DNA of 64,000 bases, taken from IMG/VR virus record IMGVR_UViG_3300030441_000216; one strand, 5' to 3'. Both the position numbers and the translations under genes were made by a program. The DNA comes from a virus. The notes under the pieces are model-generated. The model was not told the DNA's origin, did not search any database, and saw only the letters and a program-made list of their open reading frames with translations. The first letter of the stretch is position 1, and the number at the start of each line of letters is the position of its first letter. This document shows, one piece after another, positions 39,662 through 63,684 of this stretch.

Positions 39662-40051
39662 GTGAAAATAAAAGATAAAATACGAAATAAATTAAGAACT
39701 TGGTTCTTTGAGACTGAATTAAAAGACTTGCAAAAATCTACTATACAGATGCAAATGGCACGAAACCAATATTCAGACGCATATAGATTAGTCAATGATT
39801 GTCATCAATTAATAAATTCAATGATGGATGTCGGAACTGATATTCATTTACATAGCGACCATTCTTGGGCTGTTGTATGTATTAAAGGTCACCCAGAGTA
39901 CGTATCATTTATGCCATTATCATCTGGTGATGCTCGTGATGTAATCAGATTTTTACAACAATTCAAATATTCAGATAGGGTGATTGATTCACCTTTTGGA
40001 TTTAAAAATATGATTAATGACCATATTATGGATAATCCATTTGTAAAGTAG
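39662..40051 (+). CDS. hypothetical protein
   Basis: GTG 39662 follows AAGTGAGGTGAGAAT. Confidence 0.55.
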   Translation: MKIKDKIRNKLRTWFFETELKDLQKSTIQMQMARNQYSDAYRLVNDCHQLINSMMDVGTDIHLHSDHSWAVVCIKGHPEYVSFMPLSSGDARDVIRFLQQFKYSDRVIDSPFGFKNMINDHIMDNPFVK

Positions 40052-40105
40052 AGAATAATCTAATATAGAAGTAATTCTATTCAAAGGTTGGTCAGCCAAA
40101 TTAAG
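40049..40105 (+). repeat. direct repeat copy 1 (AGAATAATC..ATATAGAA..TTCTAT..TCAGCCAAATT)
   Basis: About 50 bp, roughly 75% identical to 40410..40465. Contains the palindrome ATAGAAGTAATTCTAT. Confidence 0.5.
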
Positions 40106-40117
40106 CGAGGTGATAAA

Positions 40118-40420
40118 GTGAAGAAATATTGGAAAACAGGTGAAAAGAATAAATTTGGTAAGGAATGTTATAAATTACATTTTAGTCAATTTTATGAAGA
40201 AGATGATGAAAAAAATGTAGTAGCTGGTTTTGTACAAGATGAGACAGACGAAAACATATTTATATATGTATCAAAAGAACTAAATGTTGAATATGATACA
40301 TTGTTTGCAGACAGTATAGAAGATGCAAAGCATCAAATTGAAGAGATGTTAATAGACCATTGGAATGAAGAGATTGATTATTTAGAAAATCGAATTAAAT
40401 CATTTCAAGGCGAAGAATAA
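40118..40420 (+). CDS. hypothetical protein flanked by direct repeats
   Basis: GTG 40118 follows AAGCGAGGTGATAAA; ORF-track 40088 is a TTG start. Confidence 0.5.
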   Translation: MKKYWKTGEKNKFGKECYKLHFSQFYEEDDEKNVVAGFVQDETDENIFIYVSKELNVEYDTLFADSIEDAKHQIEEMLIDHWNEEIDYLENRIKSFQGEE

Positions 40421-40465
40421 TCATATATAGAAATTTCTATCTTGGCGATTCAGCCAAATTTTCCA
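40410..40465 (+). repeat. direct repeat copy 2
   Basis: GAAGAATAATCATATATAGAAATTTCTATCTTGGCGATTCAGCCAAATT. Confidence 0.5.
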
Positions 40466-40612
40466 AATAAAAGTAACAAGAATTATTTTTTCCTATGGTC
40501 TTTGCAGACGTGCAAATTCTATAGGATTTTACAACAAAATAATTAAGAAGAAAGGATTTAACAGTAAATTCTAGGTAATTATGGTTACGTAACCTCTGTA
40601 AAATAGTGTATT

Positions 40613-41536
40613 TTGACAGAGAATAATGAAAAAAATAATTCTCAAGGGCTACGAGTATTAAGTTTATGTGGTGGCGTTGAAACAGGATTGTATGCGTTAC
40701 AGCAGCTCGGAATATCTATAAGAGAATATCATACATATGAAATTTTGCCAGAAGCCATAGCGGTTTCTCAGTACCATTTTCCGTTTGTGGTACATCATGG
40801 CGATTTATATGAAGCGGATTTTGAACAGTTCAAAGGATTTGATTTACTGTTGGCAGGAACTTGTTGTCAGTCACTTTCAAGAGTACGAATTGAAAGTAAA
40901 GAGGTCAATAATGGTCTTGATGGTAAGTCAAGAATTTTCTTTAAAGCTATTGAGTGTCTTAGGGCAATTCAGCCCAAATATTTCATGTTTGAGAATGTAA
41001 TACCAAGTAGTGACGAAGATCTGAAGACAATGACAGAATGTATTGGTGTAGAACCTATTTTAATTGATTCAGGAAAATTTTCTGCACAGAGTCGTGAAAG
41101 ATATTATTGGACAAACATACCATTAGGTAAATTACCTGATGAATCTCCATTAGTTTTGAAAGATATTATGGAGAATAGTGTAGATGAGAAATATTTCTAT
41201 AAGAAAGATTTTGAAATCTTGGATATGCAAAAGCGTGTATGTGCAGAGTTGAAAGTTAATACAACTGAGATGTGCAAACGTATTTTTAATCCAGATTTCA
41301 AAATGTCTACATTAACTTGCGTGTCAGGTGGATATCAGGAAAAGAAGGTATTAGATAGGGGTAAACCACGAAAACTTACAGAAGTTGAATATGAAAGATT
41401 ACAGGGATTGCCTGATAATTTTACAAAAATTCAGCTTAACAATCGTTGGTTGTCATACTCAAAAAGATGTAGTTTGATGGGTAATGGATGGAATGAACCT
41501 ACTGTTGAATGGATTTTGAGTGGGTTAAGAGAATAA
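40613..41536 (+). CDS. DNA (cytosine-5)-methyltransferase
   Basis: Motif I LSLCGGVETG, motif IV GTCCQSLS (PCQ-like), ENV motif FMFENV, motif X MGNGW. TTG start 40613 with no SD; the TTGACA at the start also looks like a -35 element. Confidence 0.85.
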   Translation: MTENNEKNNSQGLRVLSLCGGVETGLYALQQLGISIREYHTYEILPEAIAVSQYHFPFVVHHGDLYEADFEQFKGFDLLLAGTCCQSLSRVRIESKEVNNGLDGKSRIFFKAIECLRAIQPKYFMFENVIPSSDEDLKTMTECIGVEPILIDSGKFSAQSRERYYWTNIPLGKLPDESPLVLKDIMENSVDEKYFYKKDFEILDMQKRVCAELKVNTTEMCKRIFNPDFKMSTLTCVSGGYQEKKVLDRGKPRKLTEVEYERLQGLPDNFTKIQLNNRWLSYSKRCSLMGNGWNEPTVEWILSGLRE

Positions 41537-41593
41537 AAGAAAGGAGTAAGAGGTTTGGTATACCGAAAACGCAGCGTTTACTCCTGATACATA

Positions 41594-42097
41594 ATGATAA
41601 TAAATAGAATTTGGCAGATGCCAAGTAGTAATACATTTTCAATTAAGCCAATTAAGGAATTGATTGAGAAATATGCAACTGGTAAGATTGTTGATCCGTT
41701 TGCAAATAGTAATAAGCTGGCAACAGTAACAAATGACTTAGATACACAATATGATACTGATTACCATATGGACGCACTGAATTTCTTAAAGATATTCGAT
41801 GATAACTCAGTAGATACAGTGCTATATGATCCACCATACTCGCCACGACAGGTAAGCGAATGTTACAAAAATCTTGGACAGACAGTAAATATGCAGACAA
41901 CACAAGCTTCATATTGGTCTAAACAGAAGGAACAGATAGGAAGAATTGTAAAGAAAGATGGCATTGTAATTACTTGTAGCTGGAATAGTGGTGGCATTGG
42001 TAAGAAGTATGGCTTTGAAATTCAGGAAATTTTACTTGTTCCTCATGGTGGTTGGCACAATGACACGATTGTTGTGGTTGAAAAGAAGATTGAGTAG
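41594..42097 (+). CDS. DNA methyltransferase, N4/N6 DPPY class (small)
   Basis: VLYDPPYSPRQ motif. Start ATG 41594 or 41618. The 5' leader forms the hairpin AGGAGTAA-27 nt-TTACTCCT, which sequesters the SD. Confidence 0.75.
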   Translation: MIINRIWQMPSSNTFSIKPIKELIEKYATGKIVDPFANSNKLATVTNDLDTQYDTDYHMDALNFLKIFDDNSVDTVLYDPPYSPRQVSECYKNLGQTVNMQTTQASYWSKQKEQIGRIVKKDGIVITCSWNSGGIGKKYGFEIQEILLVPHGGWHNDTIVVVEKKIE

Positions 42098-42163
42098 AGA
42101 ATAACAGAATATGAAGTTCGCAGGAAAGCGGAATTTCTTATGGGCGAAAGGAGAGAGAATTAT

Positions 42164-42370
42164 ATGAAATTAGTGCAAAATTATAGAGCTGATGGAAGAA
42201 TACCAACTGATGATGAAATAAATCAGTGTATTGAAATTGCAAATAGAGAGGATTGTATCGTTCATTTGGAATGGGTTTTTCCATATAGCGGAAGATATTC
42301 AGTAGATATTGTCAAAGGAATGGCTTACGAAGCTGTAAAAAATAAGTTGCCAAAATGTTATCCAGTATAA
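42164..42370 (+). CDS. hypothetical small protein
   Basis: ATG 42164 follows GAAAGGAGAGAGAATTAT. Confidence 0.5.
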   Translation: MKLVQNYRADGRIPTDDEINQCIEIANREDCIVHLEWVFPYSGRYSVDIVKGMAYEAVKNKLPKCYPV

Positions 42371-42381
42371 GGGGGATTGTA

Positions 42382-42657
42382 ATGAGTAAAGCTGTTTTAA
42401 TGATGGATATGCCAAATAGTTGTGATAAATGTCCATGTTTTTGTGGTCATTATTCTGATATGTGTTGCATGGCTTTAAATAACCGTACAATTAATTATCC
42501 TTATCCGAAAGATTTTAGACAAAGATGGTGTCCATTAAAAGAATTGCCAGAAGAGACACACAATAATGAGTATATGGACGAATATTGCGATGGTTATGAT
42601 GATGGTTGGAACTCATTAAGAAAGAAAATTTTAGGCGAAGATGAGGAGGATAAATAG
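42382..42657 (+). CDS. Cys-rich hypothetical protein (CDKCPCFCGH...CCM)
   Basis: ATG 42382 follows AAGGGGGATTGTA. Confidence 0.5.
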   Translation: MSKAVLMMDMPNSCDKCPCFCGHYSDMCCMALNNRTINYPYPKDFRQRWCPLKELPEETHNNEYMDEYCDGYDDGWNSLRKKILGEDEEDK

Positions 42658-43161
42658 ATGACAGTTGGTGTAAAAATATGTGAAGCAAAAGATACAATTA
42701 AGAAATACGAAAACCTTGGGTATAGATTTGTTAGTGAAGAAAATGTGGGTGAAGGATATTTAAAACTTAACTTCAGAGATCCAATTGTTCCAGAAGAGAA
42801 TAATACAACAGATATTCAATTTCATGAAGGTGATTATGTAGAAAATAGTGATGGCAAAGTTGGATATATTTCATCCATTTGTCATTGTGATGAGTGCAAG
42901 AGGCGTGGATTCTTTGAACCAACTATTAAATATTCCGATGGAACAACAGATTACATTAGCAATTATTCTGTTAAAACTGTTTCGTCTGATTATAAGCAGA
43001 TTGGAACTCAGAAGTTTTCAACAGAAGATATATTGAAAAATAAAATAGCTGCACTTGAAAAAGAGAATAAAGAATTAACTGAAAAGGTAAATTATTTGAC
43101 TGATAGAAATCATGAATTGCTCAGTCTATGCTGCTTTTATGATATGGAAAGGAACGGATGA
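42658..43161 (+). CDS. hypothetical protein with C-terminal coiled coil
   Basis: SD GAGGAGGATAAATAG-ATG; contains CHCDECKRRG. Confidence 0.6.
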   Translation: MTVGVKICEAKDTIKKYENLGYRFVSEENVGEGYLKLNFRDPIVPEENNTTDIQFHEGDYVENSDGKVGYISSICHCDECKRRGFFEPTIKYSDGTTDYISNYSVKTVSSDYKQIGTQKFSTEDILKNKIAALEKENKELTEKVNYLTDRNHELLSLCCFYDMERNG

Positions 43162-43165
43162 GACA

Positions 43166-43363
43166 ATGGTAGATATTCAATGTAAAGACGGAAAATATAT
43201 TATTGACGCAAGAATTCATAGTGAAGTTGATACAAATGATATTGCAAAAGTGCAGGAAAGATTTACTTCTGATTGTGCTTATGAGTTTGCAGAAGCTATG
43301 AGAGAAGCAGTAAACGTTAGCCATTTGGTAATGAAAGAACAAAGAAAAGAGGTAACAAAATGA
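43166..43363 (+). CDS. hypothetical small protein, start uncertain
   Basis: ORF-track 43112..43363, with ATG 43166 chosen just after the upstream stop. Confidence 0.4.
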   Translation: MVDIQCKDGKYIIDARIHSEVDTNDIAKVQERFTSDCAYEFAEAMREAVNVSHLVMKEQRKEVTK

Positions 43364-43872
43364 GAGAAACATTAATTGTTGTAGATATGCAGAATGATTT
43401 TATTGATGGAACACTTGGTACAAAGGAAGCACAGGCGATTGTATCAAATGTAGCAAAGAAAATTAAGGAGTACAAGGATGCTGGTAAACAGGTAATCTTT
43501 ACAAGAGACACACATCCCGAGAATTATTTAGAGACATATGAAGGTATACATCTTCCTGTTACTCACTGTGTAAAGAATACTGCTGGTTGGCAGATTTTAG
43601 ATAAGTTAGATTTTGATATTGATAATGACATTCTGATTGACAAAATTACTTTTGGATGGACTCATTGGGATGATTTTAGATTTGAAAGCGTTGAGATTTG
43701 CGGATTATGCACCGATATCTGCGTGATTTCAAATGCACTTATTATTAGAGCAAACTATCCTGAGATTGATATTACAGTAGATGCAAGCTGTTGTGCAGGT
43801 GTCACACCTGATACTCACAAGGCTGCATTAGCAACTATGAAGATGTGTCAGATTGAAGTGATTGGAGAGTAG
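43360..43872 (+). CDS. pncA: isochorismatase-family hydrolase, nicotinamidase (PncA)-like
   Basis: LIVVDMQNDFIDG (Asp), K in the KNTAGW region, and the catalytic Cys context CGLCTDICVISNAL. Confidence 0.8.
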   Translation: MRETLIVVDMQNDFIDGTLGTKEAQAIVSNVAKKIKEYKDAGKQVIFTRDTHPENYLETYEGIHLPVTHCVKNTAGWQILDKLDFDIDNDILIDKITFGWTHWDDFRFESVEICGLCTDICVISNALIIRANYPEIDITVDASCCAGVTPDTHKAALATMKMCQIEVIGE

Positions 43873-43875
43873 AAT

Positions 43876-44712
43876 ATGATTAAAATTAATGGCGATATTG
43901 TAACAATCAATAAGTTCCCAGATGGAACACCAAGAGTAAATATTGATATAAACAACATTGAGGAAGACTCTTATGATGGCTCTCCTTGTATTTGGATTGA
44001 ATGGATTTATGAGAGTAACGATGAGATATTTTATCTGATGTTAGTAAAGAAACATCTTGAAAGATTTTTTACTAATGTGGATTATTATTTGTCTCTTCCA
44101 TATATTCCTAATGCACGAATGGATAGAGTAAAAAATGATGATGAAGTATTCACATTGAAGTATTTTTGCGATTTTATCAATTGGTTAGGATTTTCATCAG
44201 TTTATGTTTTAGATGCTCATAGCGATGTTTCTACTGCATTACTCAATAATTGTGTAAAAGAAAATCCAAAAGAGTATGTTGATAAAGCTATTTCAAAGAT
44301 TGGTATGAGAAATCTTGTACTTTATTTTCCAGATGCAGGTGCAGCTAAGAGATATTCAGATTTATTCCCTGAGTTACCGTATTGTTATGGTGAAAAGAAG
44401 AGAGATTGGAAGACTGGTAAAATCCTTGGATTAGACATTAGAACAAATGGTATTGATTTGAAGGATAAAGCTGTGTTAATGATTGATGATATTATCGCAT
44501 ATGGCGGTTCACTTTATTATAGTGCAGAAGAATTAAAGAAACATGGTGTAACTGAGATTTATGCGTATGCAACACATACAGAGAATTCAATTCTTGATAA
44601 AGAAAAAGGAACGTTGATCAAGTCTTTGGAGAATAATACAGTGAACAGATTATTTACGACAAACAGTTTATTTAATGGTAGTCATGAAAAAATTACAGTT
44701 ATGGAGGTTTAA
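43876..44712 (+). CDS. ribose-phosphate pyrophosphokinase (Prs)-family protein, candidate ADPR-pyrophosphate synthetase (Adps-like)
   Basis: Aligns by eye to Prs: KFPDGTPRVNI, LPYIPNARMDRV, VLDAHSD, FPDAGAAKRYSDL, VLMIDDIIAYGGSL...IYAYATH (PRPP-binding loop). Confidence 0.85.
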   Translation: MIKINGDIVTINKFPDGTPRVNIDINNIEEDSYDGSPCIWIEWIYESNDEIFYLMLVKKHLERFFTNVDYYLSLPYIPNARMDRVKNDDEVFTLKYFCDFINWLGFSSVYVLDAHSDVSTALLNNCVKENPKEYVDKAISKIGMRNLVLYFPDAGAAKRYSDLFPELPYCYGEKKRDWKTGKILGLDIRTNGIDLKDKAVLMIDDIIAYGGSLYYSAEELKKHGVTEIYAYATHTENSILDKEKGTLIKSLENNTVNRLFTTNSLFNGSHEKITVMEV

Positions 44713-44716
44713 AATT

Positions 44717-46177
44717 ATGGATAACACAATGGCTTTATTATTATCAGATACTTATAAACAGTGTCATGATCGCATGTACCCAAATGGTTTGACTAAATTG
44801 GTGTCGTATTGGGTGCCTAGAAAATCAATGTTAGAGAATCAGAATGAAATGGTTTTCTTTGGATTACAGGCATTTATCAAAGAATATTTAATGGGATATT
44901 TTCAGAAAAATTTCTTCGATTTATCGGAAGATGAGATGCTAACTCTTTATACAGATTCGATGGACGTACAGATTGGTAGAGACAACTATGATTTAGATAA
45001 AATTGTAGAGCTTCACAGATTAAGATATTTACCACTTGAGATTAGAGCATTACCAGAAGGTACACTTGTTCCTATGGGTGTTCCTTGTATTGAGATTACA
45101 AATACGGATGATAAATTTGCTTGGCTTGTTCAGTGGATCGAATGTATTCTTCAGGTAGAATTATGGAAGCCTTGTTGTCATGCAACTATCGGTCATATGT
45201 ATCGTGAGATTGCAGATTATTGGTATAACAAGACAACAGACGGGTTGCCTGGAAATATGGCTTGTGCAGATTTTGGCATGAGAGGAATGTCTTGTATGGA
45301 TGAAGCTACAAGATGTTCAGCATCATGGTTGCTTTCATTTAATAAGACATCTACAATTCCAGCAATTAATTATATTGATAGATATTACAATGCCGATTGT
45401 AAGAATAATGGTATTGGAATCGGTGCTGTCTCAACTGAGCATTCTGTAATGGGGGCTAATTTCTCAATTGATGGAGATGAGATTACGTTCGTTAAGAGAC
45501 TTTTAACAGAGTTATATCCAAATACATCATTTAGTATGGTTTCAGATACTTATGATTATTGGAATATGGTAAATAATATTCTTCCACAGTGTAAAGAAGA
45601 GATTATGAATCATAATGGAAAGCTCTTGGTTCGTCCTGATAGTGGTGATATTGTAGAGATTTCAGTTAAGACAGTTGAAAGGTTATGGGAGATTTTTGGT
45701 GGTTCTGTAAATGGTAAAGGTTATAAGGTATTAAATCCGCATATCGGTATTATTTATGGTGATGGCTGCACACTTTCTAATGTAGAAACTATTTGGAAAG
45801 AATTAGAAAAGCGTGGTTTCGCAGCTAATAATATTGCTTATGGTGTAGGAGCTTTTTGCTTCACTGCAATCGTTGAAAATGGCAAGATGATTGTTGTTAC
45901 AAGAGATACTTTTGGTATTGCAATGAAAGCTACATATGGAGTAATTGATGGTAAGAAGTTAATGATTTTCAAAGATCCTAAGACAGATACGAGTCACTTA
46001 AAGAAATCTCATAAAGGATGTTGTAGAGTATACGATGATAACGGTGAATTAAAGTGTCAAGATCAGTTACTTGAAATGAGTGATAACAGTTTACTTACTA
46101 CCGTATTTAAAGATGGAGAGTTAGTAAGAGAAGATACATTTGCGGATATCAGAAACAGAATGTACGGAGGTAAGTAA
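44717..46177 (+). CDS. nicotinamide phosphoribosyltransferase (NAMPT/NadV)-family protein, candidate Namat-like
   Basis: N-terminus LLLSDTYKQCHDRMYPNG matches the NAMPT start (LLATDSYKVTHYKQYPP). 486 aa; ATG 44717 lies 9 nt after GGAGG. Confidence 0.8.
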   Translation: MDNTMALLLSDTYKQCHDRMYPNGLTKLVSYWVPRKSMLENQNEMVFFGLQAFIKEYLMGYFQKNFFDLSEDEMLTLYTDSMDVQIGRDNYDLDKIVELHRLRYLPLEIRALPEGTLVPMGVPCIEITNTDDKFAWLVQWIECILQVELWKPCCHATIGHMYREIADYWYNKTTDGLPGNMACADFGMRGMSCMDEATRCSASWLLSFNKTSTIPAINYIDRYYNADCKNNGIGIGAVSTEHSVMGANFSIDGDEITFVKRLLTELYPNTSFSMVSDTYDYWNMVNNILPQCKEEIMNHNGKLLVRPDSGDIVEISVKTVERLWEIFGGSVNGKGYKVLNPHIGIIYGDGCTLSNVETIWKELEKRGFAANNIAYGVGAFCFTAIVENGKMIVVTRDTFGIAMKATYGVIDGKKLMIFKDPKTDTSHLKKSHKGCCRVYDDNGELKCQDQLLEMSDNSLLTTVFKDGELVREDTFADIRNRMYGGK

Positions 46178-46638
46178 TGATTAAAATTATTGATGGAGAC
46201 TTGCTCACTTCGAACACTGATATTATTGCGCACCAGGTTAATTGCAAAGGTGCTTTTAATTCTGGTGTTGCAAAAGCGATCCGTGATTATGATGCGCAAG
46301 TATATAAAGATTATCATAGTTTTTGTTCGATTAATACACCTGAACAATTATTGGGTTCTGTTAGATATTTTCAGTCTAATATTGACGCAAGAATATATGC
46401 AAATTTATTTGCACAAAAATCATATGGCTATGACGGAAAACAGTATACAGATATTAATTCTTTAAGAAAATGTTTTGAAAATTTGAGATCATATGCGGTT
46501 TTGGAAAATATGAGTATTGCAATGCCATATAAAATTGGCTGTGTTCGTGGCGGTGCAAATTGGGAGGAAGTACATCAAATGATAGAGGATATTTTTTATG
46601 ATTGCAATGTTGAATTATGGAGGCTTGACAAAGGATGA
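46177..46638 (+). CDS. macro-domain protein (second copy)
   Basis: IIDGDLLTSNTDIIAHQVNCKGAFNSGVAKAI matches GDIT...DAIVNAAN..L.GGGV..AI. Confidence 0.8.
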   Translation: MIKIIDGDLLTSNTDIIAHQVNCKGAFNSGVAKAIRDYDAQVYKDYHSFCSINTPEQLLGSVRYFQSNIDARIYANLFAQKSYGYDGKQYTDINSLRKCFENLRSYAVLENMSIAMPYKIGCVRGGANWEEVHQMIEDIFYDCNVELWRLDKG

Positions 46639-47048
46639 TAAATGAATTTAGAGGTAAATATTATTTTTTAAGCAACTTTTATTCTTCTCCTGTTACATAT
46701 GAAGGACTTACATATTTGAATAATGAAGCCGCTTTTCAATCAGCAAAAACTTTTTCAGATAGAGAATGTTTCACGAATTTAGATCCATCATCTGCAAAGA
46801 AACTTGGCAGAAGAGTTCAGCTTCGATCTGATTGGGAAGATGTGAAGTACAACGTTATGTACGAAATTGTAAAAGCGAAATTTACTCAAAATTTAAAGCT
46901 CAAAGCAAAGTTACTTGAGACTGATAATCAGCATCTCGAAGAAGGTAATACTTGGGGTGATAAAATTTGGGGCACAGTGAATGGTGTTGGAGAAAATAAT
47001 TTAGGAAAAATTCTTATGAGAGTTAGAGAGGAGATTAGACATGAGTAA
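46635..47048 (+). CDS. NADAR/YbiA-like (DUF1768) protein
   Basis: GKYYFLSNFYSSPVTYEGLTYLNNEAAFQSAK...WGDKIWG fits the NADAR signature (FLSNF...E..FQ..K). Confidence 0.75.
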   Translation: MINEFRGKYYFLSNFYSSPVTYEGLTYLNNEAAFQSAKTFSDRECFTNLDPSSAKKLGRRVQLRSDWEDVKYNVMYEIVKAKFTQNLKLKAKLLETDNQHLEEGNTWGDKIWGTVNGVGENNLGKILMRVREEIRHE

Positions 47049-47778
47049 TTTTGATGTAAAGAAAGCAACTAATGATTGCGTTCAGTGGATTAAGGATTTC
47101 TTTGAACAGAATGGTAAAGATTGTATGGCAGTAGTGGGTATCTCAGGCGGAAAGGATTCAAGTGTTGTGGCAGCATTATGTGTAGAAGCTCTTAGTAAGG
47201 ATAGAGTAATTGGAGTCCTTATGCCACAAGGAGAACAAAGTGATATCGAATATTCAAAAATGTTGGTTGACTTTTTAGACATCACTAGAATTACGTGCAA
47301 TATTGAGGGTGCTGTCAATGAAGTGTTAGAGAGTTTTGAAGGTGTAGTTTCACCGACACCTCAGACAACAACAAATCTTCCTGCTCGTATTCGTATGGCT
47401 ACATTATATGCTATTTCTCAGTCAGTAAATGGTCGTGTTGCTAATACGTGTAATCTTTCCGAAAATTGGGTAGGTTACGCCACAAAATATGGTGACGCTG
47501 CTGGTGATTTCAGTCCGTTATCTCAGCTTACAGTAACAGAGGTTAAAGCTATTGGTCGTGAGTTGGGACTTCCGTCAGAATTAGTTGATAAGACACCTAC
47601 CGATGGTCTTTGCGGAAAGACTGATGAAGATAACCTTGGATTTACTTATGCTGAATTAGATGCATATATCAGAGATGGAATTGAGCCAAACGAGGAAGTA
47701 AAAACTAAGATTGATTCAATGCATGAGAAAAATCTGTTTAAATTACAGCCAATGCCAAGTTTTGTGTACCAGGCGTAA
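47041..47778 (+). CDS. nadE: NH3-dependent NAD+ synthetase
   Basis: PP-loop VVGISGGKDSSV, RIRMATLYAIS, ENWVGYATKYGDAAGDFSPL, DKTPTDGL...DEDNLGFTYAELDAYI. Confidence 0.9.
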   Translation: MSNFDVKKATNDCVQWIKDFFEQNGKDCMAVVGISGGKDSSVVAALCVEALSKDRVIGVLMPQGEQSDIEYSKMLVDFLDITRITCNIEGAVNEVLESFEGVVSPTPQTTTNLPARIRMATLYAISQSVNGRVANTCNLSENWVGYATKYGDAAGDFSPLSQLTVTEVKAIGRELGLPSELVDKTPTDGLCGKTDEDNLGFTYAELDAYIRDGIEPNEEVKTKIDSMHEKNLFKLQPMPSFVYQA

Positions 47779-47829: not shown

Positions 47830-47889
47830 ATATTTTTACAAAGAAACATAGATTTCTTTTGGAGAATAAATTAGCAGGAGGTAAGCAAT

Positions 47890-48426
47890 ATGGAATATAG
47901 AGAGATTAATTTTTGCTGCGGTTGGACTATTGAACGAGCTGTAAAGGAATTACACGAAAGAGCAAAGGATGGCAATAAATATTGTGGTGAATTCAATGGG
48001 AATAAACTAACATCTGATATGTCTTTAGATGATGCTTATATGCTTTGTATAGGCAAAACTTTTGACGAATTTAATAAAGAGCAAGAAGAAAGTCGTCAAA
48101 GATTAATTCATGAAGAGGAAGAACACAAAAGAAAAATCCCTGAATTATCAAAGTATTGGATAGAAGAAGGTCATAAGGTTTTATCTAAAGATAAATGGGA
48201 AATGTGGGATAAATGTGTTCCTATTCGACTTGGTGATTTATATAGAGGAATGGAACTTGGTCAGTGTTTAGATATTATCAGAACCGTTAAAGAAAAATCT
48301 ATTCAAGATGGAATTGAAATTATGAAAAATCAGGGACATTCTGGTATGTCATGGGGATTAATGAAGTCTATGGTTAGAGAATTTTGTGATTGTGGAAACG
48401 AATTCTTAGAACAGTTGGGAGAATAA
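47890..48426 (+). CDS. hypothetical protein
   Basis: SD AGCAGGAGGTAAGCAAT-ATG. Confidence 0.6.
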   Translation: MEYREINFCCGWTIERAVKELHERAKDGNKYCGEFNGNKLTSDMSLDDAYMLCIGKTFDEFNKEQEESRQRLIHEEEEHKRKIPELSKYWIEEGHKVLSKDKWEMWDKCVPIRLGDLYRGMELGQCLDIIRTVKEKSIQDGIEIMKNQGHSGMSWGLMKSMVREFCDCGNEFLEQLGE

Positions 48427-48691: not shown

Positions 48692-48724
48692 AGCAGAGAA
48701 TAACATAATAGGAGGTGCAAATAA

Positions 48725-49138
48725 ATGCAGAATATTAGTATTAAAGGAGTTTGCGATTGTGTAGACTTAGACAGAAATATCAAATTAACAAATGGTGCAG
48801 TCGTAGTGCAGAAAGAAAATAACAATGTAATAGGTGTTTATTTAGTGATTTCGTTCAGAGACAATAAAAACAAATATGGTGGTGACACTACATCAACATA
48901 TTGTAGTTTGGTAAATCTCGACAATGGACAATTAGCTTTTGAAGAAAGATGTAGTCGTGCTACAACAGAGAGACGTGTTCTTAGACATTTAACAAGAGCA
49001 GGTTTTAGTTATCCTTATGATCCAAATTCTCATGAGCAGGATAGTAAGTTTTATAATATGAGGGTTCAGGTTTATAACAATGGAAATTACAAAATGAATC
49101 TTGAACTTGGTGATGAATACATTATGTATGGTAGATAG
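48725..49138 (+). CDS. hypothetical protein
   Basis: SD ATAGGAGGTGCAAATAA-ATG. Confidence 0.55.
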   Translation: MQNISIKGVCDCVDLDRNIKLTNGAVVVQKENNNVIGVYLVISFRDNKNKYGGDTTSTYCSLVNLDNGQLAFEERCSRATTERRVLRHLTRAGFSYPYDPNSHEQDSKFYNMRVQVYNNGNYKMNLELGDEYIMYGR

Positions 49139-49141
49139 GAG

Positions 49142-49511
49142 AATAAATCATATGAAGAAGAAAATTTTATATAGTTTGGCTTTACTATTAGCATTTATGT
49201 TTATATTAACCGGCTGTGCAAAATGCATTAGCACCGAAATATCTACGGTTCAAGTAAAAATAATAGATGAATATCACAGGGCTGCTTATACAACAATGCA
49301 TTATAGTCCTGCGACTAAAACGATGATACCACAATCGCATCCAGCAGTTTATAGAATTACTGTTGAATATAACGGTGTAGAATATAATATTTCTGGTAGT
49401 AATACATATAACAAATATTCAGACAAAATTGGAGAATATGTTGATGGAATATTAGAAACCAAGAAATATGACGATGGCACTGTTAGATACAATATTGTTG
49501 ACTTACCATAG
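49142..49511 (+). CDS. lipoprotein
   Basis: MKKKILYSLALLLAFMFILTGC is a signal peptide plus lipobox (LTGC). SD TAGGAGAATAAATCAT-ATG. ORF-track 49101 trimmed. Confidence 0.7.
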
Positions 49512-49918: not shown

Positions 49919-49987
49919 GAGAATAATACATTGAAAGGAGCAAGAGATTTGCTGCAGCATTAAATCTGGATTTGCTCTGAGTAAAAA

Positions 49988-53602: not shown

Positions 53603-53701
53603 GAAAGAAGCATTTCCTGTTAATTTTGTCTAAGAGCATTTCTACACACGGTTTTCCAAAATAAAAAAGAGAGAATAACTAAATATAAGGAGGTATAGAA
53701 C

Positions 53702-53971: not shown

Positions 53972-54454
53972 ATGAAAATAGAATTGATTAGATTAAAATT
54001 TAATGGCACTCATTCGTACAAGTATAATCCATTTAAGCATTGCTGTGATGAAATTCAGAAGGATAAAACTATTGTATTTACAGGTGAAGATATAAATGAT
54101 ATTGGTGGAGAATATGAAGATGATGGCATCTATATTCCACAATTTTGTACTTCCTATACACAAACAGTTGGTTCTTGGGAGGACGAATGGGAGCAGACAG
54201 ACAATTTTCCAATTAAATTCTGCCCTCATTGCGGTGAAAAGATTGAGATTTCAGTTGTAGATAAGATTGATGTATCTGATAAATATGAAGAATTAACTAA
54301 GCAGCGTGATGAATTATGGGAGAGGTGTCAGAGAACAGATAGTAAGAAGAAAGAATCTGAACTAAGAGAGCAGGTTGGAAAGCTTGATAAGCAGATTGAC
54401 AGTTTCTATTGGTTGGATGAGTGGAAAGGAGAATATTATTATGGCAGTATTTAA
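53972..54454 (+). CDS. hypothetical protein with zinc ribbon (CPHCGEK)
   Basis: SD TAGAAGGATAAAGAT-ATG. Confidence 0.55.
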   Translation: MKIELIRLKFNGTHSYKYNPFKHCCDEIQKDKTIVFTGEDINDIGGEYEDDGIYIPQFCTSYTQTVGSWEDEWEQTDNFPIKFCPHCGEKIEISVVDKIDVSDKYEELTKQRDELWERCQRTDSKKKESELREQVGKLDKQIDSFYWLDEWKGEYYYGSI

Positions 54455-54716: not shown

Positions 54717-54823
54717 AGTAATAAGAATTTCAGGTTTCTTTGGTAACAAAGAGAGAATATTAAAGTAAGGATAAAATCAATGATTTTTATGAACTAAGAA
54801 AAAATAAAAGAGGTGAACGATTA

Positions 54824-55793: not shown

Positions 55794-55821
55794 AAGAGAA
55801 TAATACATTGGAGGTGAAATT

Positions 55822-56214: not shown

Positions 56215-56350
56215 ACCAATCTTTCTTTTGGAAATTTTTAATCATATCTAAGCCATTCGGCTGTGGGAATCCCAGTAAATAAGAGAATATTACAAAGAAA
56301 GGATAATTAGTAGCTGGCTTTAAAGGTTGCAACCGCTTTGGTACTAATTA

Positions 56351-57157: not shown

Positions 57158-57581
57158 TCGAAGGAAATTTTTCTTTCTTTTGGGCAGATTGGAGGTGATT
57201 AATATTTTAGAGCTACATGGTAAATTTGAAAAAATAAGTGATGCTACAAAAGTCTTAATAGTTGGTAAACAGATAGATACCATAGGGAAAATGATAAGTG
57301 TAATAGCAGAAGCTCGAACAAAAAATGAACTTGAACAAAAATATAAAGACTTAGGCATACAAGTACAAGAAGATCCGCTTGCAAAGCTTCTTGAAACAAT
57401 TAATGAAATGCATTTTGGCGATAATTTTCCTATTGAATGTCTTGAACCTCCAAAACAAGAGATATCTACTCTTAAAAAGAGAATAAAGTATTGTAAGAAT
57501 CCTATGGAGAAAAAGAAATTAGAGCAGGAATTAAATGCTTTATATAAAGAACAGAAGAGAAATAGGAGAATAATATCATGA
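57138..57581 (+). CDS. hypothetical protein, start uncertain
   Basis: ORF-track ATG 57138 overlaps the MTase end. A strong SD TTGGAGGTG at 57189-57197 has only TTG, GTG or ATT in-frame starts nearby. Confidence 0.4.
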   Translation: MWKESNSRRKFFFLLGRLEVINILELHGKFEKISDATKVLIVGKQIDTIGKMISVIAEARTKNELEQKYKDLGIQVQEDPLAKLLETINEMHFGDNFPIECLEPPKQEISTLKKRIKYCKNPMEKKKLEQELNALYKEQKRNRRIIS

Positions 57582-57772
57582 AAGGTAAATATAAAGGCTG
57601 TGACATAGAAGTAGGACTAGATAGCTTAGGTTTCTTAACCTTTGCAGTGTTCGATAATGGATACGAAGTAACAAGTGGATTTTCTGAAAGTAGTGATTCT
57701 GTAAGAGATTATTTTAGTTATATGAAAAGTGTAGTAGATGACTATAAAGAACATCCAGAAGATTACGAATAG
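57578..57772 (+). CDS. hypothetical small protein
   Basis: SD AATAGGAGAATAATATC-ATG; overlaps the upstream stop. Confidence 0.5.
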   Translation: MKGKYKGCDIEVGLDSLGFLTFAVFDNGYEVTSGFSESSDSVRDYFSYMKSVVDDYKEHPEDYE

Positions 57773-57784
57773 GAGAATAATATT

Positions 57785-58106: not shown

Positions 58107-58364
58107 ATGGCACAGTTAATTGATAAAACAGTATTACGAAAAGAATTATCTAAGTTGCCATCTGAAATGGGATTTGTAAGAAAGTCTGATGTAATGCAAA
58201 CTCTTGGCAGTCAGAAATGTGCCTACGATATAAAAGAAGAGAGAAATAAAACTCTTGATGAAGTTCTAAAGGCTTGTGACATTGAATGTGGATTTTATAG
58301 TGGTGATGTTAAAAATCTCACAAGACACGTTTTGATGAGAGTATTGAATGGATTGAGAGAATAA
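58107..58364 (+). CDS. hypothetical protein
   Basis: ATG 58107 follows ATGGGAGACTAACATT. Confidence 0.5.
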   Translation: MAQLIDKTVLRKELSKLPSEMGFVRKSDVMQTLGSQKCAYDIKEERNKTLDEVLKACDIECGFYSGDVKNLTRHVLMRVLNGLRE

Positions 58365-58409
58365 TTTAACAGGAATGATTCGTTCCTTTTGGAAATGTGA
58401 GGTGGAATA

Positions 58410-58982: not shown

Positions 58983-59035
58983 ATATCGTTTCCTTTAGAA
59001 ATAAATTTTGCACAAAGAAAGGAGAGAATAACAGA

Positions 59036-60298
59036 ATGAACAGTAGCATTTTTGTTCCTAAAACGATAAATGTTGGATATCAAAATCGTTCAGGAACTTA
59101 CACAGGAAAACTTGCTTATGTCATTTACTATGATGAAAAAGGTAAGCTACGAAAAGAAGCATCGTGGAATAGTTGGCGTGACGATAAAATTCCGAATGAT
59201 GAATTTGATAATGTGCCAACAGAAGGATTTGTATTAAATAAGAAAGCTGGCGATTACTCTACAGGATGGGATCACAGACATGCTTATTGTAGAGTATATG
59301 ATCCAAGAGGATTTGAGTTTGAAATTACCATTGAAAATTTATTATATATTCTTGAAAATGCGAATTGTATCAAGGGTAAGGGACTTGAAGGAGAATTTAT
59401 ATATGGATGGGATGGTAAGGATTTAGTTCTTATGCCAGTTGAGTCACCTGACTATAAGCAAATTGCGGCTTATAATAAGATTGTACATAATAATGAATCT
59501 ATTAAGACAAAAGATTTGATTATTGGTGCAACATATCTTACAAAAGAAAATATTGAATGGATTTATATGGGACGTTTTGAAACATATGGATATGGTTATG
59601 AGTTTATACAGGATGGTAAAATTGTAAGAACAAAATCTTATAAAGATATTCCAACTGAACCAGGTCGATTTGGATATACAAAAATTTCTCATAAAGGAAT
59701 TAACAACCTTCCATATGGTAAAATGCATTGGTTTGCAAGATTAAGAGATGGGAAGTATGAATTTGAGCAATTCAAAAGTGTTCCTAAAAACAAACTTATT
59801 AGTTGTCTTGATGCTAAATGCACATCTAAATATTCTGAAATTTATGATTCAATGGAATCATCTTATCAATTCTCCCCTATAGACGATAACAAAGATAAAA
59901 TCGTAAATATCTCATTTGAAGATTTTTATGAAAAAGCAATTAATACATATGTCGATAATGATATAACAAGAAAATATGTCGATGTTCGTTTTATGGTAAA
60001 CGACAATGGAGAATATATTAGATATGAAATGACAACGCCATATAGATCAGAAGATAACGGCAAATATACTGTTTATAAATATAGTACCAAGAATATCTAT
60101 CATGGAGATAAGGAAGCAATTGATATTTTCCCGACAGAAGAAAGAGAAGTGGAAGTACATTATGGTCAAAAAGAAATTCAGACGCATATGATCCCAGTTT
60201 CTATTGAAACAGTTTTTGAAAAGTTAAAACCAGTATGTAAGCAGAAATATTTAGCAAATGGTAGAGAATATAAAAAGGAGTACGAGTTTAATGAGTAA
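59036..60298 (+). CDS. hypothetical protein (420 aa)
   Basis: SD AAAGGAGAGAATAACAGA-ATG; long uninterrupted ORF. Confidence 0.7.
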   Translation: MNSSIFVPKTINVGYQNRSGTYTGKLAYVIYYDEKGKLRKEASWNSWRDDKIPNDEFDNVPTEGFVLNKKAGDYSTGWDHRHAYCRVYDPRGFEFEITIENLLYILENANCIKGKGLEGEFIYGWDGKDLVLMPVESPDYKQIAAYNKIVHNNESIKTKDLIIGATYLTKENIEWIYMGRFETYGYGYEFIQDGKIVRTKSYKDIPTEPGRFGYTKISHKGINNLPYGKMHWFARLRDGKYEFEQFKSVPKNKLISCLDAKCTSKYSEIYDSMESSYQFSPIDDNKDKIVNISFEDFYEKAINTYVDNDITRKYVDVRFMVNDNGEYIRYEMTTPYRSEDNGKYTVYKYSTKNIYHGDKEAIDIFPTEEREVEVHYGQKEIQTHMIPVSIETVFEKLKPVCKQKYLANGREYKKEYEFNE

Positions 60299-60698: not shown

Positions 60699-60732
60699 AA
60701 GAGAGAATAATACAATAGGTAGTATATTTCAT

Positions 60733-60777: not shown

Positions 60778-60829
60778 TATATAGTGACAAAATAGACAAG
60801 AAATATCGGTTTCCTTGAGAGGTAAAATA

Positions 60830-61255
60830 ATGGAGATTTTAGGAAATAAATTAAAAAGATTTTTTGACATTGTAGATAATCCACCAAATGATGCTGAAAT
60901 TACATATGCTGGGAATAGATATGAGGTATGGGAAATATCTGAAAACCTATTTAATAAGATGTGTGATATGTCAGAAGATGAATTTGTTAAATTAGCAGGT
61001 GAAGAGGCATGGTGGAGACAGTGTAATGGCAGTGTACTTGGTGTTCCTGATACAAAATTCATTATTAGTGGTGAAGAAATGGTAGGTTGGAATACAAGAG
61101 GAGAATATGAAAATTTTCAGTATGCTAAATTGACTGATTATCTATGCTATGGAATTGGAGCATCGCAACCTAAAAATGTATGTGCTTGTTGTGTGGATCT
61201 TGCAAAATACAATGATATGACAATGGCAGAATTATTTGAAAAGTATGGAGAATAA
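60830..61255 (+). CDS. hypothetical protein
   Basis: ATG 60830 follows TGAGAGGTAAAATA. Confidence 0.6.
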   Translation: MEILGNKLKRFFDIVDNPPNDAEITYAGNRYEVWEISENLFNKMCDMSEDEFVKLAGEEAWWRQCNGSVLGVPDTKFIISGEEMVGWNTRGEYENFQYAKLTDYLCYGIGASQPKNVCACCVDLAKYNDMTMAELFEKYGE

Positions 61256-61329
61256 CTTATTAGGGAGGTGCATGACATATCGAAAAATATCCAAGTATCG
61301 AAGATGTATCAAATTACTTAGTTGAAGAA

Positions 61330-61512: not shown

Positions 61513-61759
61513 TAAGGTAAGACAGTTTATTGATTTACTTGTCAATGAAGAAGAAACAATCGAAAATGCAGCAAAGGTATCTGGAATTGGCAATATGAAA
61601 TTGGTCGATGTTTTAAAGACTATTTCAGAGATGGAGTTTGAAAGTATTAAAGCTTTTTCAAGTGCTGTTGCTGGTATGAATAGTATGAAGGAAGCTATTC
61701 AGACGGTTAAGGATTTAGATTATGCATTAACAGACTTAAAGAAATCTTCTGAAAAGTAG
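61502..61759 (+). CDS. hypothetical protein
   Basis: ORF-track ATG 61484 lies inside the SD (ATGAAGGAG). The SD-proximal ATG at 61502 is chosen. Confidence 0.5.
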   Translation: MENNKVRQFIDLLVNEEETIENAAKVSGIGNMKLVDVLKTISEMEFESIKAFSSAVAGMNSMKEAIQTVKDLDYALTDLKKSSEK

Positions 61760-61805
61760 AGAATATATTGATAGATTGGTATTTATTGGTGAAGAGTAAA
61801 TAACA

Positions 61806-61852: not shown

Positions 61853-61903
61853 GGAAATCAAGACCGAATGAAACTGACATTTCTTGGTTGTGGAGGTGAG
61901 ATT

Positions 61904-62164: not shown

Positions 62165-62194
62165 AACAGAGAATATATAGTTGGAGGTAAGAAT

Positions 62195-62578
62195 GTGATA
62201 TATACAAGTTATTTTGCAAAACTTAAATCGTTACCAGATAATATAATTCCAATTTCAATTTGTGGAAAAGCACCTAATTGGTATACAGGCTTGCAATATA
62301 AAAAGCTTGCACCAAAATATGACTTCTTTATGAAGTGGAAAGAAAATCATGATAATGATTATTATATAAAGTGCTTTAATGAGCAGGTATTAAATAAATT
62401 AAACGCTACTGATGTTGTCTTAGATTTTTCAAGAATTTGCTATGGATATAATGTTGGAGAAAATGACATTGCTTTGATTTGCTATGAAAAGCCTACAGAT
62501 TTTTGTCATCGTCATTTAGTATCCGATTGGTTAAATAAAAACGGCTTTAAATGTGATGAATATTTATTTAGCAAGTAA
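62195..62578 (+). CDS. hypothetical protein
   Basis: GTG 62195 follows TTGGAGGTAAGAAT. Confidence 0.55.
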   Translation: MIYTSYFAKLKSLPDNIIPISICGKAPNWYTGLQYKKLAPKYDFFMKWKENHDNDYYIKCFNEQVLNKLNATDVVLDFSRICYGYNVGENDIALICYEKPTDFCHRHLVSDWLNKNGFKCDEYLFSK

Positions 62579-62664
62579 ATCTAACTTATCTATGATTCCT
62601 TCGAATCACAATTTCCAATAAAAATGAAAATCAAATAGAGAATAAACATATAAAGGAGGATTTT

Positions 62665-62955
62665 ATGTTTGCAGAATTTGAAGATGATATACAGTTTTGG
62701 GGATGCAATATTCCGAATGAAGTGAAAATGGTTATAGATTCAGCAAATGAAAGTGTAGACAAATCATTCGATAATGAAGATCAAAAACAAGCTTATCATC
62801 TTGGTGTAGAAAATACATTGTCTGTATTGAAACAGTTACTTGATGAAGGGTTAAGTAGAGATAGCATTACATTTTATTATCCAAACGCAGCTACAACAGA
62901 AGAAATGGATATAGAAGATATTAACCAATGGCTAGAAACATTATCATATAAATAA
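62665..62955 (+). CDS. hypothetical acidic protein
   Basis: SD AAAGGAGGATTTT-ATG. Confidence 0.55.
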   Translation: MFAEFEDDIQFWGCNIPNEVKMVIDSANESVDKSFDNEDQKQAYHLGVENTLSVLKQLLDEGLSRDSITFYYPNAATTEEMDIEDINQWLETLSYK

Positions 62956-62994
62956 ATCACTGTTTCATTGGGAAATTTGAGAAGGTGACTATCA

Positions 62995-63207
62995 ATGCAG
63001 AAAGATGGTACAGATATATCAATCGTTTTTACATGTAGGTTTGTTGATGGTACAAAATATGGTTTATCAGTCGGCGAAAAACATGGTTGTATAAGAGAGT
63101 TTTGTGATTTTGATAGTGCAGAAGAAATTGAAACACTTATGCTTGGATTGGCTGATATGCTTAATAAAATCAGATTAGAACATAATGGAAAATTCCCAAG
63201 ATGGTAA
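62995..63207 (+). CDS. hypothetical small protein
   Basis: SD GAGAAGGTGACTATCA-ATG. Confidence 0.5.
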   Translation: MQKDGTDISIVFTCRFVDGTKYGLSVGEKHGCIREFCDFDSAEEIETLMLGLADMLNKIRLEHNGKFPRW

Positions 63208-63234
63208 GAGAATAACATTTTGAGGAGGTGAGAA

Positions 63235-63627
63235 ATGGATACGCAGCTATGTAAAGCAAAGAGCATTAGTAGTGGTCAATGGGTTTGTGGATATTATGTA
63301 AAAGGTTTAGATATGTATGGCAAAGAAATTCATATAATATTTGAACCTACGACAGTATTTTATTCTCATGGTGAAACCGATGGTTTTGAAGAAATAGATT
63401 CAAAGACATTATGTAGGTGCACTGGCAGTCATGATAAGAATGGTAATTTAATCTTTGAAAACGATATTCTAAACGGAGAATTATATAATGTAGTCTCTTA
63501 TGGGAATGGTGAGAATGAATTTCTTGGAATGAATGTTGGTTGGTATGTACAGAGAGATAATTTTGAATCATGGTGTGAATTAAATGATTTAGAGTTATAC
63601 GAGGTCACAGGAAATATCTTAGATTAG
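63235..63627 (+). CDS. hypothetical protein
   Basis: SD TGAGGAGGTGAGAA-ATG. Confidence 0.55.
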   Translation: MDTQLCKAKSISSGQWVCGYYVKGLDMYGKEIHIIFEPTTVFYSHGETDGFEEIDSKTLCRCTGSHDKNGNLIFENDILNGELYNVVSYGNGENEFLGMNVGWYVQRDNFESWCELNDLELYEVTGNILD

Positions 63628-63684
63628 TCTTGAACAATTCAGTTCAAAATTTCCAAATATAAAATAGAGAATATATGAATAGAG

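Follow-up and report, generated by a model that had tools for sequence, protein, structure and literature searches.

What is the short sequence that recurs at gene ends throughout the right half of a piece of gut phage DNA, and what reads it? The DNA in question is a stretch of 64,000 nt from the virus record IMGVR_UViG_3300030441_000216 (the whole of it is called the window here), for which a first-pass annotation made from the letters alone had described a conserved motif at more than 20 gene ends between 40049 and 63675 and had offered two readings, a phage-specific promoter or an RNase processing signal. The motif, AGAGAATAW in the form that matters here, is in our judgment probably a promoter of some kind. 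The narrower proposal, in which it would be a phage-specific promoter consisting of a -10 element only, read by the host core RNA polymerase together with a sigma-H-like factor encoded by the phage, is the best-supported reading, though it appears to us evenly balanced on the sequence evidence set out below.

Enrichment and two classes of the motif

The window has 22 copies of AGAGAATAA, all of them on the + strand, as compared to 3.14 +/- 1.7 in dinucleotide shuffles, and the enrichment over shuffled controls on which the annotation had staked its claim is thus borne out. The 12-mer RAGAGAATAAYA, with at most one mismatch, is found 30 times (7.5 expected), and GAGAATA lies 65 times on the + strand and twice on the - strand. 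Among intergenic 8-mers other than Shine-Dalgarno (SD) sequences, AGAGAATA is the most enriched, with 21 copies in intergenic DNA (11% of the window) and 21 in coding DNA; the intergenic comparison with shuffles was 22 vs 0.99. In roughly 80–100 related contigs this 8-mer appears about once per 1.1 kb of coding strand and ∼0 times on the other, a density kept in relatives whose marker protein is only 55–62% identical, and the motif is still present in phages whose sigma factor is only 31% identical. The motif is specific to this phage family, since Clostridioides phage pCD1602_4, by DnaE the nearest relative in culture, showed no enrichment. Nor was any seen in L173 (IMGVR_UViG_3300045988_150231) despite its 82% identical copy of the 59036–60298 protein; L173 was considered as a carrier of a variant motif covarying with a different sigma factor, which was ruled out as the motif is simply absent, and it is probably an unrelated phage sharing the gene. 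An iterated position-weight-matrix scan was dropped because purine-rich coding matches contaminated its result. The positions first reported for the motif were mostly right, but the copy put at 58366 begins 10 nt earlier, spanning 58356–58364, and at 40412 there is only a weak variant, GAAGAATAA.

Counting the first G of GAGAATA as position 0, we sorted 1,698 unique contexts of NGAGAATAW from the family by their distance to the next SD-led start. Copies 9–15 nt from a start have G at -1 in 289 of 323 cases (89%), while A stands at -1 in 173 of the 216 copies 22–33 nt away and in 389 of the 539 lying beyond 33 nt. GGAGAATAW 9–15 nt before an ATG is a ribosome-binding site (RBS) with its spacer, a separate class that is not counted among the promoters here, and AGAGAATAW is a distinct signal that sits upstream of its own SD. 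The annotation had recognized a single class; its A(-1) copies are genuine, but GGAGAATAA RBS copies were wrongly pooled with them, and those it gave at 48416, 49136, 57772 and 59023, at 9–13 nt from an ATG, are SD and spacer rather than a signal preceding an SD. The RBS copies in the window are the following.

48418–48426, + strand: SD-type GGAGAATAA, 9 nt before ATG 48428; RBS and spacer.
49138–49146, + strand: SD-type GGAGAATAA, 13 nt before ATG 49152.
54428–54436, + strand: SD-type GGAGAATAT, 12 nt before ATG 54441.
57565–57573, + strand: SD-type GGAGAATAA, 12 nt before ATG 57578.
57772–57780, + strand: SD-type GGAGAATAA, 12 nt before ATG 57785.
59023–59031, + strand: AGAGAATAA, probably SD-type (AAGGAG precedes it) but ambiguous between spacer and motif, 12 nt before ATG 59036.

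Family-wide, GGAGAATAA/T serves as SD plus spacer in 208 of 802 (26%) GGAG-N6-9-ATG starts and makes up 65% of all-A/T spacers, far exceeding what AT-richness explains. Use of these SD-type copies as leaderless mRNA starts was ruled out because their ATG, at +12 to +14, is 2–3 nt too near for the predicted start. As a Shine-Dalgarno sequence, only the G(-1) class fits; the A(-1) class lies 22–33 nt or more from the start and is followed by an SD of its own, and on inspection the motif has no complementarity to the canonical anti-SD. A role of A(-1) copies in translation, whether as an upstream enhancer, a standby site or the target of a RegA-like repressor acting on the following RBS, would agree with their fixed distance of 25–31 nt to many start codons and their resemblance to the family's preferred SD and spacer. 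However, A at -1 abolishes GGAG pairing, and the majority of intergenic copies either have no start within 40 nt or stand before DNA without an open reading frame (ORF), which leaves this explanation very improbable.

The 77 non-redundant start-proximal copies have A at -4 and -1 and no conservation upstream of -5; downstream come W at +7, an AT-rich stretch from +8 to +12, T at +13 and a purine (R) at +14 (75 of 77), and then the SD. Because T(+13) and R(+14) also prevail in 195 copies far from any start (64% and 92%, respectively), they are not a by-product of the SD, and the bias was not seen in copies within ORFs. Logos of the start-proximal and start-distant copies contain no -35-like element. 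A TTCCAAA box upstream was considered as a partner element and rejected, as its spacing is variable and most of its occurrences are at orthologous sites. Conservation extends over 17 nt, AGAGAATAATAAAATAG, in the strongest copies and over only ∼10 nt in most.

Across the family, copies most often stand 25–31 nt before the next SD-led start and at -5 to +11 relative to the upstream stop, and copies anchored solely to a start and copies anchored solely to a stop both occur. The copy at 62637, for instance, is 60 nt past the previous stop and is therefore anchored to the start. Because the consensus AGAGAATAATAAAATAG supplies stops in two of three frames (TAA at +5, TAG at +13), the association with gene ends is partly mechanical. 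The placement originally described, between a stop and the next RBS, thus holds for the A(-1) class, but its link to stops is partly of this kind, and the argument that R/G-E-stop endings betray selection on the nucleic acid is weaker than stated for the same reason. Copies stand at the heads of gene groups, and between 35 and 64 kb most spacers of 27 nt or longer contain one; tightly packed clusters, such as the eight nicotinamide adenine dinucleotide (NAD)-salvage genes at 42658–47778, have none. Neither matches to sigma-A-type promoters nor intrinsic terminators are enriched in 44–64 kb. The start-proximal copies in the window are these.

47861–47876, + strand: start-proximal copy, GGAGAATAA with G(-1); SD from ∼+14, ATG 47890; the homology block with relatives begins here.
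48695–48710, + strand: start-proximal copy, AGAGAATAACATAATAG followed by GAGG; ATG 48725; homology breakpoint at +1.
53670–53685, + strand: start-proximal copy; TTG start 53702.
55795–55810, + strand: start-proximal copy, AGAGAATAATACATT followed by GGAGG; ATG 55822; breakpoint at 0.
60263–60278, + strand: copy within the 3' end of 59036–60298, 27 nt before the overlapping gene start 60291.
62168–62183, + strand: start-proximal copy; GTG start 62195.
62637–62652, + strand: start-proximal copy; ATG 62665.
63207–63222, + strand: start-proximal copy; ATG 63235.

The remaining copies are listed below.

2453–2468, + strand: doubtful copy, GGAGAATAA, in the loop of a terminator-like hairpin, 52 nt before 2506.
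7069–7084, + strand: copy 5 nt past a stop; terminator stem from +9, with the predicted start (+14) in its 5' arm.
17410–17425, + strand: copy directly before a terminator stem, which begins at +11.
21747–21762, + strand: copy 35 nt before 21783.
22939–22954, + strand: copy after a terminator-like hairpin, 42 nt before 22982.
35101–35116, + strand: GGAGAATAT copy 4 nt past a stop and 61 nt before the DUF8224 gene (35163); breakpoint.
40050–40065, + strand: copy overlapping the TAG stop of 39662–40051, 67 nt before 40118.
40618–40633, + strand: copy at or just 5' of the C5-methylase ORF; pairs with downstream ATAATTCTC.
41528–41543, + strand: copy whose TAA is the stop of 40613–41536.
42096–42111, + strand: copy overlapping a TAG stop; heads the unit leading into the motif-free NAD-salvage cluster 42140–47778.
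49918–49933, + strand: copy 1 nt past a stop, 69 nt before 49988; breakpoint.
51904–51919, + strand: copy 87 nt before 51992.
54752–54767, + strand: copy preceded by GGTTTCTTTGG, 71 nt before 54824; breakpoint.
56282–56297, + strand: copy 68 nt before 56351.
58356–58371, + strand: copy whose TAA is the stop of 58107–58364.
60702–60717, + strand: full-consensus copy AGAGAATAATACAATAG, 5 nt past a stop; operator-like palindrome pair downstream.
61247–61262, + strand: GGAGAATAA copy whose TAA is the stop of 60815–61255.
61758–61773, + strand: copy overlapping a TAG stop; palindrome pair downstream.
63666–63681, + strand: copy AGAGAATATATGAATAG followed by AGGTGA, before the last ORF of the window.

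Copies in the left half had been said to occur only next to terminators. The copies at 7069 and 17410 do lie 9–11 nt before terminator stems and that at 22939 after a terminator, but 2453 is in a hairpin loop and 21747 has no terminator nearby. Most spacers of 25–50 nt in 1–35000 are without the motif and carry instead TTTC-N3-4-GAAA or TTTCTT mini-hairpins 5–12 nt before the SD (e.g., 1988–2021, 9191–9240, 18871–18905 and 34313–34352), which may sequester the SD or form a second class of signal.

The sigma factor of the phage and its proposed promoter grammar

Three features in the window bear on what might read the motif.

28730–29368, + strand: sigma-70-family domain with regions 2 and 4, about residues 1–213 of a 740-aa ORF; candidate reader of the motif.
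29369–30952, + strand: GmrSD_N/DUF262-like portion joined to the sigma domain; encoded separately in most relatives.
27591–27621, + strand: putative host sigma-A-type promoter, TTGACA-N17-TAATAT, upstream of the operon containing the sigma factor.

Residues 31–195 of the 28730–30952 ORF match TIGR02937 (E = 5e-10) over regions 2 and 4, and a profile of its homologues matches FliA (1rp3) and F. nucleatum SigH (3mzy) in PDB. The AlphaFold model of the sigma domain has a pLDDT of 68 (75–90 for the domains), and its best Foldseek match is B. subtilis sigma-H (9a4r_A, E = 8e-5), the other matches listed all being sigma factors bar one anti-sigma complex. In most relatives the sigma factor is a stand-alone gene of 182–214 aa, syntenic in all relatives checked, in the conserved order integrase, helix-turn-helix (HTH) protein, PemK, ∼200-aa protein, 63-aa protein, sigma factor and GmrSD_N-like protein. 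In the lineage of the window the last two are fused, giving its 740-aa ORF (loci compared: window 28730–30952, L235 10001–12005 and L238 10001–12210). Sigma homologues range down to 28–36% identity, with residues 73–97 (F.T.L.GNI.RK..T..RD....R.K) invariant or nearly so and the region-4 HTH diverging. We equate this patch with regions 2.3/2.4, which would read the -10 element, and a constant patch beside a diverging region 4 is a suggestive parallel to a constant -10 motif without a -35 element. Because the sigma factor varies between 28 and 100% identity while the motif stays the same, the coupling of the two rests on this one conserved patch. The N-terminal domain of 28730–30952, put forward earlier as sigma-like, is thus a syntenic sigma-70-family domain with an invariant -10 patch, and its link to the motif is a putative one. 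The predicted TTGACA-N17-TAATAT promoter of its operon fits early expression by host sigma-A. Within 27591–27676 this promoter is followed by an 11-bp inverted repeat (TGCTTGACTAG...CTAGTCAAGCA), also upstream of the operon. No phage RNA polymerase was found by Pfam among 20 large ORFs or by a DxDGD scan of the window and of 383 ORFs of at least 350 aa from 173 family loci.

If +14 of the motif is taken as the transcription start (+1), AGAGAATAW spans -15 to -7, with G at -14, A at -11 and W at -7. As sequence goes, this layout matches that of a sigma-70-family -10 region and also fits the sigma-H -10 box RNNGAATWW; the likeness to an extended -10 element that had been remarked on gains support from this geometry and from the conserved pyrimidine/purine step at +13/+14. 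We infer that RNA 5' ends lie at +14, that they arise by initiation rather than by cleavage, and that this sigma factor is the reader. Host RNA polymerase with sigma-A would transcribe an early operon from the TTGACA/TAATAT promoter at 27.59 kb, this operon would supply the sigma-H-like phage factor (residues 1–213 of the 28730–30952 product), and the host core polymerase carrying it would initiate at motif copies. These would head most gene groups in 35–64 kb as well as structural and replication operons elsewhere in related genomes, with transcripts starting right at the SD or at a 5'-terminal stem-loop. Geometry, position at the heads of gene groups and the presence of a sigma domain all appear to speak for the promoter half of the earlier proposal.

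The grammar most like that of the motif is that of sigma-H (Spo0H) promoters of Bacillus and Clostridioides, RNAGGAWWW - 11–12 bp - RNNGAATWW (PMC7438776). The phage core A-G-A-GAAT-A-W fits the -10 box R-N-N-GAAT-W-W, with a GAAT-start spacing of 12–13 nt. In 14 of 22 C. difficile SigH promoters (PMC7438776, Table 3), the G of GAAT is 12–13 nt from the last base, corresponding to +14/+15 here, a comparison weakened by our taking the last listed base as the transcription start from a table legend that had lost its formatting. One C. difficile promoter carries AGAGAATAT (PMC7438776), the frr promoter contains CAGAGAATATAAT, and B. subtilis sigma-H is the best match of the modeled phage sigma factor. 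It might therefore be supposed that these are simply host sigma-H promoters, with the accessory genes wired to the transition-state or sporulation sigma factor of the host and the phage sigma factor acting elsewhere, e.g., on host genes. The matching -10 box and start spacing, the identical CAGAGAATAT in the C. difficile frr promoter and a host that is probably a Lachnospiraceae Firmicute are in keeping with this. However, an AGGA -35 box at the right spacing (∼20 nt upstream of GAAT) accompanies only 5% of intergenic copies and leaves no signal in the logo, so these are not canonical sigma-H promoters; the phage core is also stricter, fixing as AGA the three bases before GAAT that vary in host sigma-H promoters, and the phage has a sigma-H-like gene of its own, so that the probable reader here is a phage gene and not a host gene. 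We consider the host sigma-H explanation improbable. A mixed version, in which the phage has copied the sigma-H grammar of its host, the anti-defence, methylase and NAD-salvage cassettes are read by host sigma-H or by the phage mimic, and the 9-mer doubles as a cassette crossover, is a little less so but still doubtful; if true, it would couple accessory genes to the stationary-phase or sporulation decision of the host.

Phage-encoded sigma factors with short promoters of their own are well known (T4 gp55, SPO1 gp28/gp34). The principle is accordingly not new in phages and would here be found in a new virus family. T4 late promoters, TATAAATA, are read on the host core polymerase by gp55, a minimal sigma-70-family protein (PMC2988020). 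They resemble the present motif as short AT-rich elements near -10, without a -35 box, repeated before many phage units. The sequence here is AGAGAATAW, however, the host is a Firmicute, and the candidate sigma factor has regions 2 and 4. In gp55 domain 2 stands alone, and the protein acts together with gp33 and the sliding clamp, no clamp coupling being known for the present phage. In the SPO1 cascade (gp28 for middle, gp33/34 for late genes), an early phage sigma factor transcribed by sigma-A redirects the host core to phage promoters. That logic would be shared, and one SPO1 element, AGGAGA, is likewise SD-like (PMC13401047), but SPO1 promoters are bipartite (-35 and -10) with no detectable relation to the motif, and the sigma factor here is sigma-H-like. 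Promoters of jumbo-phage multisubunit polymerases are highly conserved motifs of ∼10 nt, recognizable by bioinformatics ahead of many operons (PMC7598289); they require phage multisubunit polymerase genes, whereas no ORF of DxDGD type was found in the window or in the sampled family sequence. T7-like single-subunit polymerases, encoded by the phage, use promoters conserved over ∼17–23 bp (-17 to +6); here the strongest copies have 17 nt in common and most copies ∼10 nt, and no polymerase family was matched among the 20 large ORFs examined. YonO of SPbeta was dropped as a comparison, as it drives a single late operon and no promoter is known for it.

Several observations weigh against a promoter read by this sigma factor. 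The factor is 28–100% identical among phages with the same motif, and no covariation is demonstrable; it has a region 4, with which a -35 element would ordinarily be expected, but none is seen. The genomes of relatives were sampled in part and may encode another polymerase or sigma factor, none being found in the sample. Two copies (7069 and 17410) stand directly upstream of intrinsic terminators, many copies adjoin the preceding stop though the next gene is 60–145 nt off, and the motif is ∼3-fold enriched inside ORFs too (20 copies vs 6.1 from codon shuffles). Finally, the 8-mer, with G at -1, doubles as the favored SD and spacer, a hint that the sequence is shared for some reason connected with RNA or recombination.

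If the proposal is right, it would provide a transcription map, with units and internal promoters, for a human-gut phage family that is large, common and so far uncultured, and it would allow genes dependent on host sigma factors to be separated from those dependent on the phage factor. A sigma-H-like gene of gut phages, usually discussed as a means of manipulating host sporulation, would then act on the genome of the phage itself, and the pair would form a compact orthogonal promoter/sigma system for Firmicutes. What is of interest here is the sigma-H-like grammar, the second role of the motif as a cassette junction and how abundant the family is in the human gut; the motif is in addition a landmark for annotating cassette borders in these mosaic genomes.

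Stem-loops, possible cleavage and recombination at the motif

Structural and replication regions of the family, sampled by an exact-pattern scan of IMG/VR with a 17-mer (which also gave many chance matches in unrelated contigs), have full-consensus copies followed from +11 to +14 by stable stem-loops without T-runs, for example AGGGCTGTC-GTGA-GACAGCCCT, and then by an SD and ATG or by an ORF-less stretch. Hairpins of -8 kcal/mol or lower within +11 to +52 accompany 15–18% of intergenic copies (15% of the 326 non-redundant ones), as compared to 8% upstream and 3% for copies in ORFs, and 36 of 64 such stems begin at +11 to +14. A stem-loop at the extreme 5' end is a known stabilizer of mRNA in Firmicutes, and the predicted stems fit an RNA 5' end at about +14. 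The motif is not itself part of an intrinsic terminator, being unstructured and having downstream hairpins mostly without T-runs; only the copies at 7069 and 17410 precede true terminators, and at 7069 transcripts initiated at the motif would presumably escape the terminator that halts upstream transcripts.

An RNA 5' end at this place could also be made by cleavage, with a phage or host endoribonuclease recognizing AGAGAAUAW and cutting ∼7 nt downstream, between U+13 and R+14, so that the downstream RNAs would begin at the SD or at a protective 5' stem-loop. The strand-specific and intergenic nature of the signal, the conserved U/R at +13/+14, the onset of stem-loops at +11 to +14, the closeness of copies to upstream stops and the presence in the window of a PemK/MazF-family toxin gene (26896–27246, the only candidate nuclease) would all suit such a site. 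To our knowledge, however, sequence-specific RNases such as RegB and the MazF/PemK family cut inside their short recognition sites and not 7 nt past a 9-mer across a weakly conserved spacer, and a core followed by an AT-rich spacer and a pyrimidine-purine step is the layout of a -10 region with its start site. The motif is moreover missing from junctions in tight clusters, where segmenting a transcript would be equally useful, copies within ORFs are enriched rather than avoided, and a matching sigma factor is encoded. The processing option raised in the annotation is weakened by this layout, by the absence inside clusters and by the enrichment in ORFs, and we now regard it as unlikely, with host sigma-H promoters, a pure recombination linker and a translation signal each less likely still.

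Recombination is the other process that leaves its mark at the motif. Of 211 homology breakpoints between the window and its relatives, 146 fall at gene borders, which make up 15% of the sequence; many homology blocks begin exactly at the motif, and many end 7–9 nt after G0. From these alignments the motif also behaves as a crossover between accessory-gene cassettes, each with a motif at its 5' end. Taken to the extreme, GAGAATAA would be nothing but a module of stop, SD and spacer at cassette borders that offers microhomology for exchange, with A(-1) copies being inactivated former RBSs upstream of cassettes that brought their own SD. Breakpoints do lie within 30 nt of the motif more often than by chance (25 of 107 starts and 24 of 104 ends vs ∼7.5), as do intergenic breakpoints within 12 nt of it (29 of 146 vs 10% expected, p = 3e-4), GGAGAATAW forms the SD and spacer of 26% of GGAG-led starts, and the motif gives stops in two frames. 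A relic, though, would not hold eight invariant bases together with T+13/R+14 where the marker protein is only 55% identical, nor would it head ORF-less stretches or the stem-loops of structural regions. The enrichment of breakpoints is only ∼2-fold within intergenic DNA and is expected if conserved promoters act secondarily as crossovers, as they do in the regulatory cassettes of T4-type phages, and a pure linker is as improbable in our view as promoters for host sigma-H. The PeSL cassettes of T4-type phages place a host sigma-70 early promoter and a terminator stem-loop at mosaic borders. They are like the present case in having a promoter element at the borders of shuffled accessory genes with homology breakpoints on it, and differ in that the element here is a single short phage-specific box.

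Near the tape-measure region of relatives, clusters of two to three full-consensus copies, 170–340 nt apart, head ORF-less and somewhat GC-richer stretches (L082 700–1210, with three copies; L107 458–900; L091 8354–8774, - strand; L033 796–1100). The stretches in L082 have no Rfam or tRNA match and folding z-scores of -2.1 and -1.3. Such motif-headed stretches may be non-coding RNAs of the phage.

The phage family and other features of the window

The window has a G+C content of 30%, a pronounced purine skew and genes all on the + strand, with strong SDs of the GGAGG type, and contains numerous small ORFs, several DNA methylases, the NAD-salvage cluster, an integrase/HTH/PemK module and the sigma-like ORF. 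By megablast of its 40–60 kb part, no relative was matched among cultured phages. It belongs to a large family of human-gut phage contigs: IMG/VR relatives, whose 59036–60298 protein is 55–99% identical, are mostly 90–216 kb long and cluster at 150–170 kb, and ENA contigs of 230–423 kb encode a 685-aa protein identical to that of the window. Tape-measure proteins, helicases and a DnaE-type polymerase encoded at family loci mark it as a tailed phage, and the nearest polymerases from culture, 36–45% identical, belong to large phages of Clostridioides, Bacillus and Thomasclavelia. A metagenome-assembled genome of Lachnospira eligens has an annotated homologue of the sigma gene, and one is on a 752-kb contig assigned to Lachnospira eligens; the host is probably a Firmicute of the Lachnospiraceae, Lachnospira. 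The phage may be integrated in the host genome, consistent with its integrase, or the gap in size between ENA and IMG/VR contigs may reflect genome size.

The NAD-salvage cluster at 42658–47778 comprises eight genes, among them isochorismatase, a phosphoribosyl pyrophosphate-type transferase, NAMPT, NADAR and NAD synthase, and at least six DNA methyltransferases are found in the window (4374, 40613, 41594, 49988, 51118, 51992 and 56351). The region resembles an arm of the phage given over to anti-defence or accessory functions. The 685-aa DUF8224/phrog_1735 protein (35163–37220) is ∼60% identical to proteins of Bacillus Bastille-like phages and occurs in >550 phage records from many host phyla, an unusual conservation.

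Some local repeats lie close to motif copies. The intergenic regions 40049–40110 and 40412–40480 have GAATAATCWWATATAGAA...TCAGCCAAATT in common, a local repeat around the motif, and ATAGAAGYAATT recurs 3' of the motif at 35101, 40050 and 63666, where it may mark homologous N-termini with a non-canonical start codon. The 12-bp palindrome ACYATATATRGT is found eight times (0.6 expected) as four pairs with members 31–32 bp apart (37641/37673, 47786/47817, 60743/60774 and 61807/61839), in long intergenic regions adjoining motif copies. A half-site of the same palindrome is present near 26830, in the spacer of a TTGACA-N17-TATAAT promoter near 26.82 kb, and the palindromes look like repressor operators.

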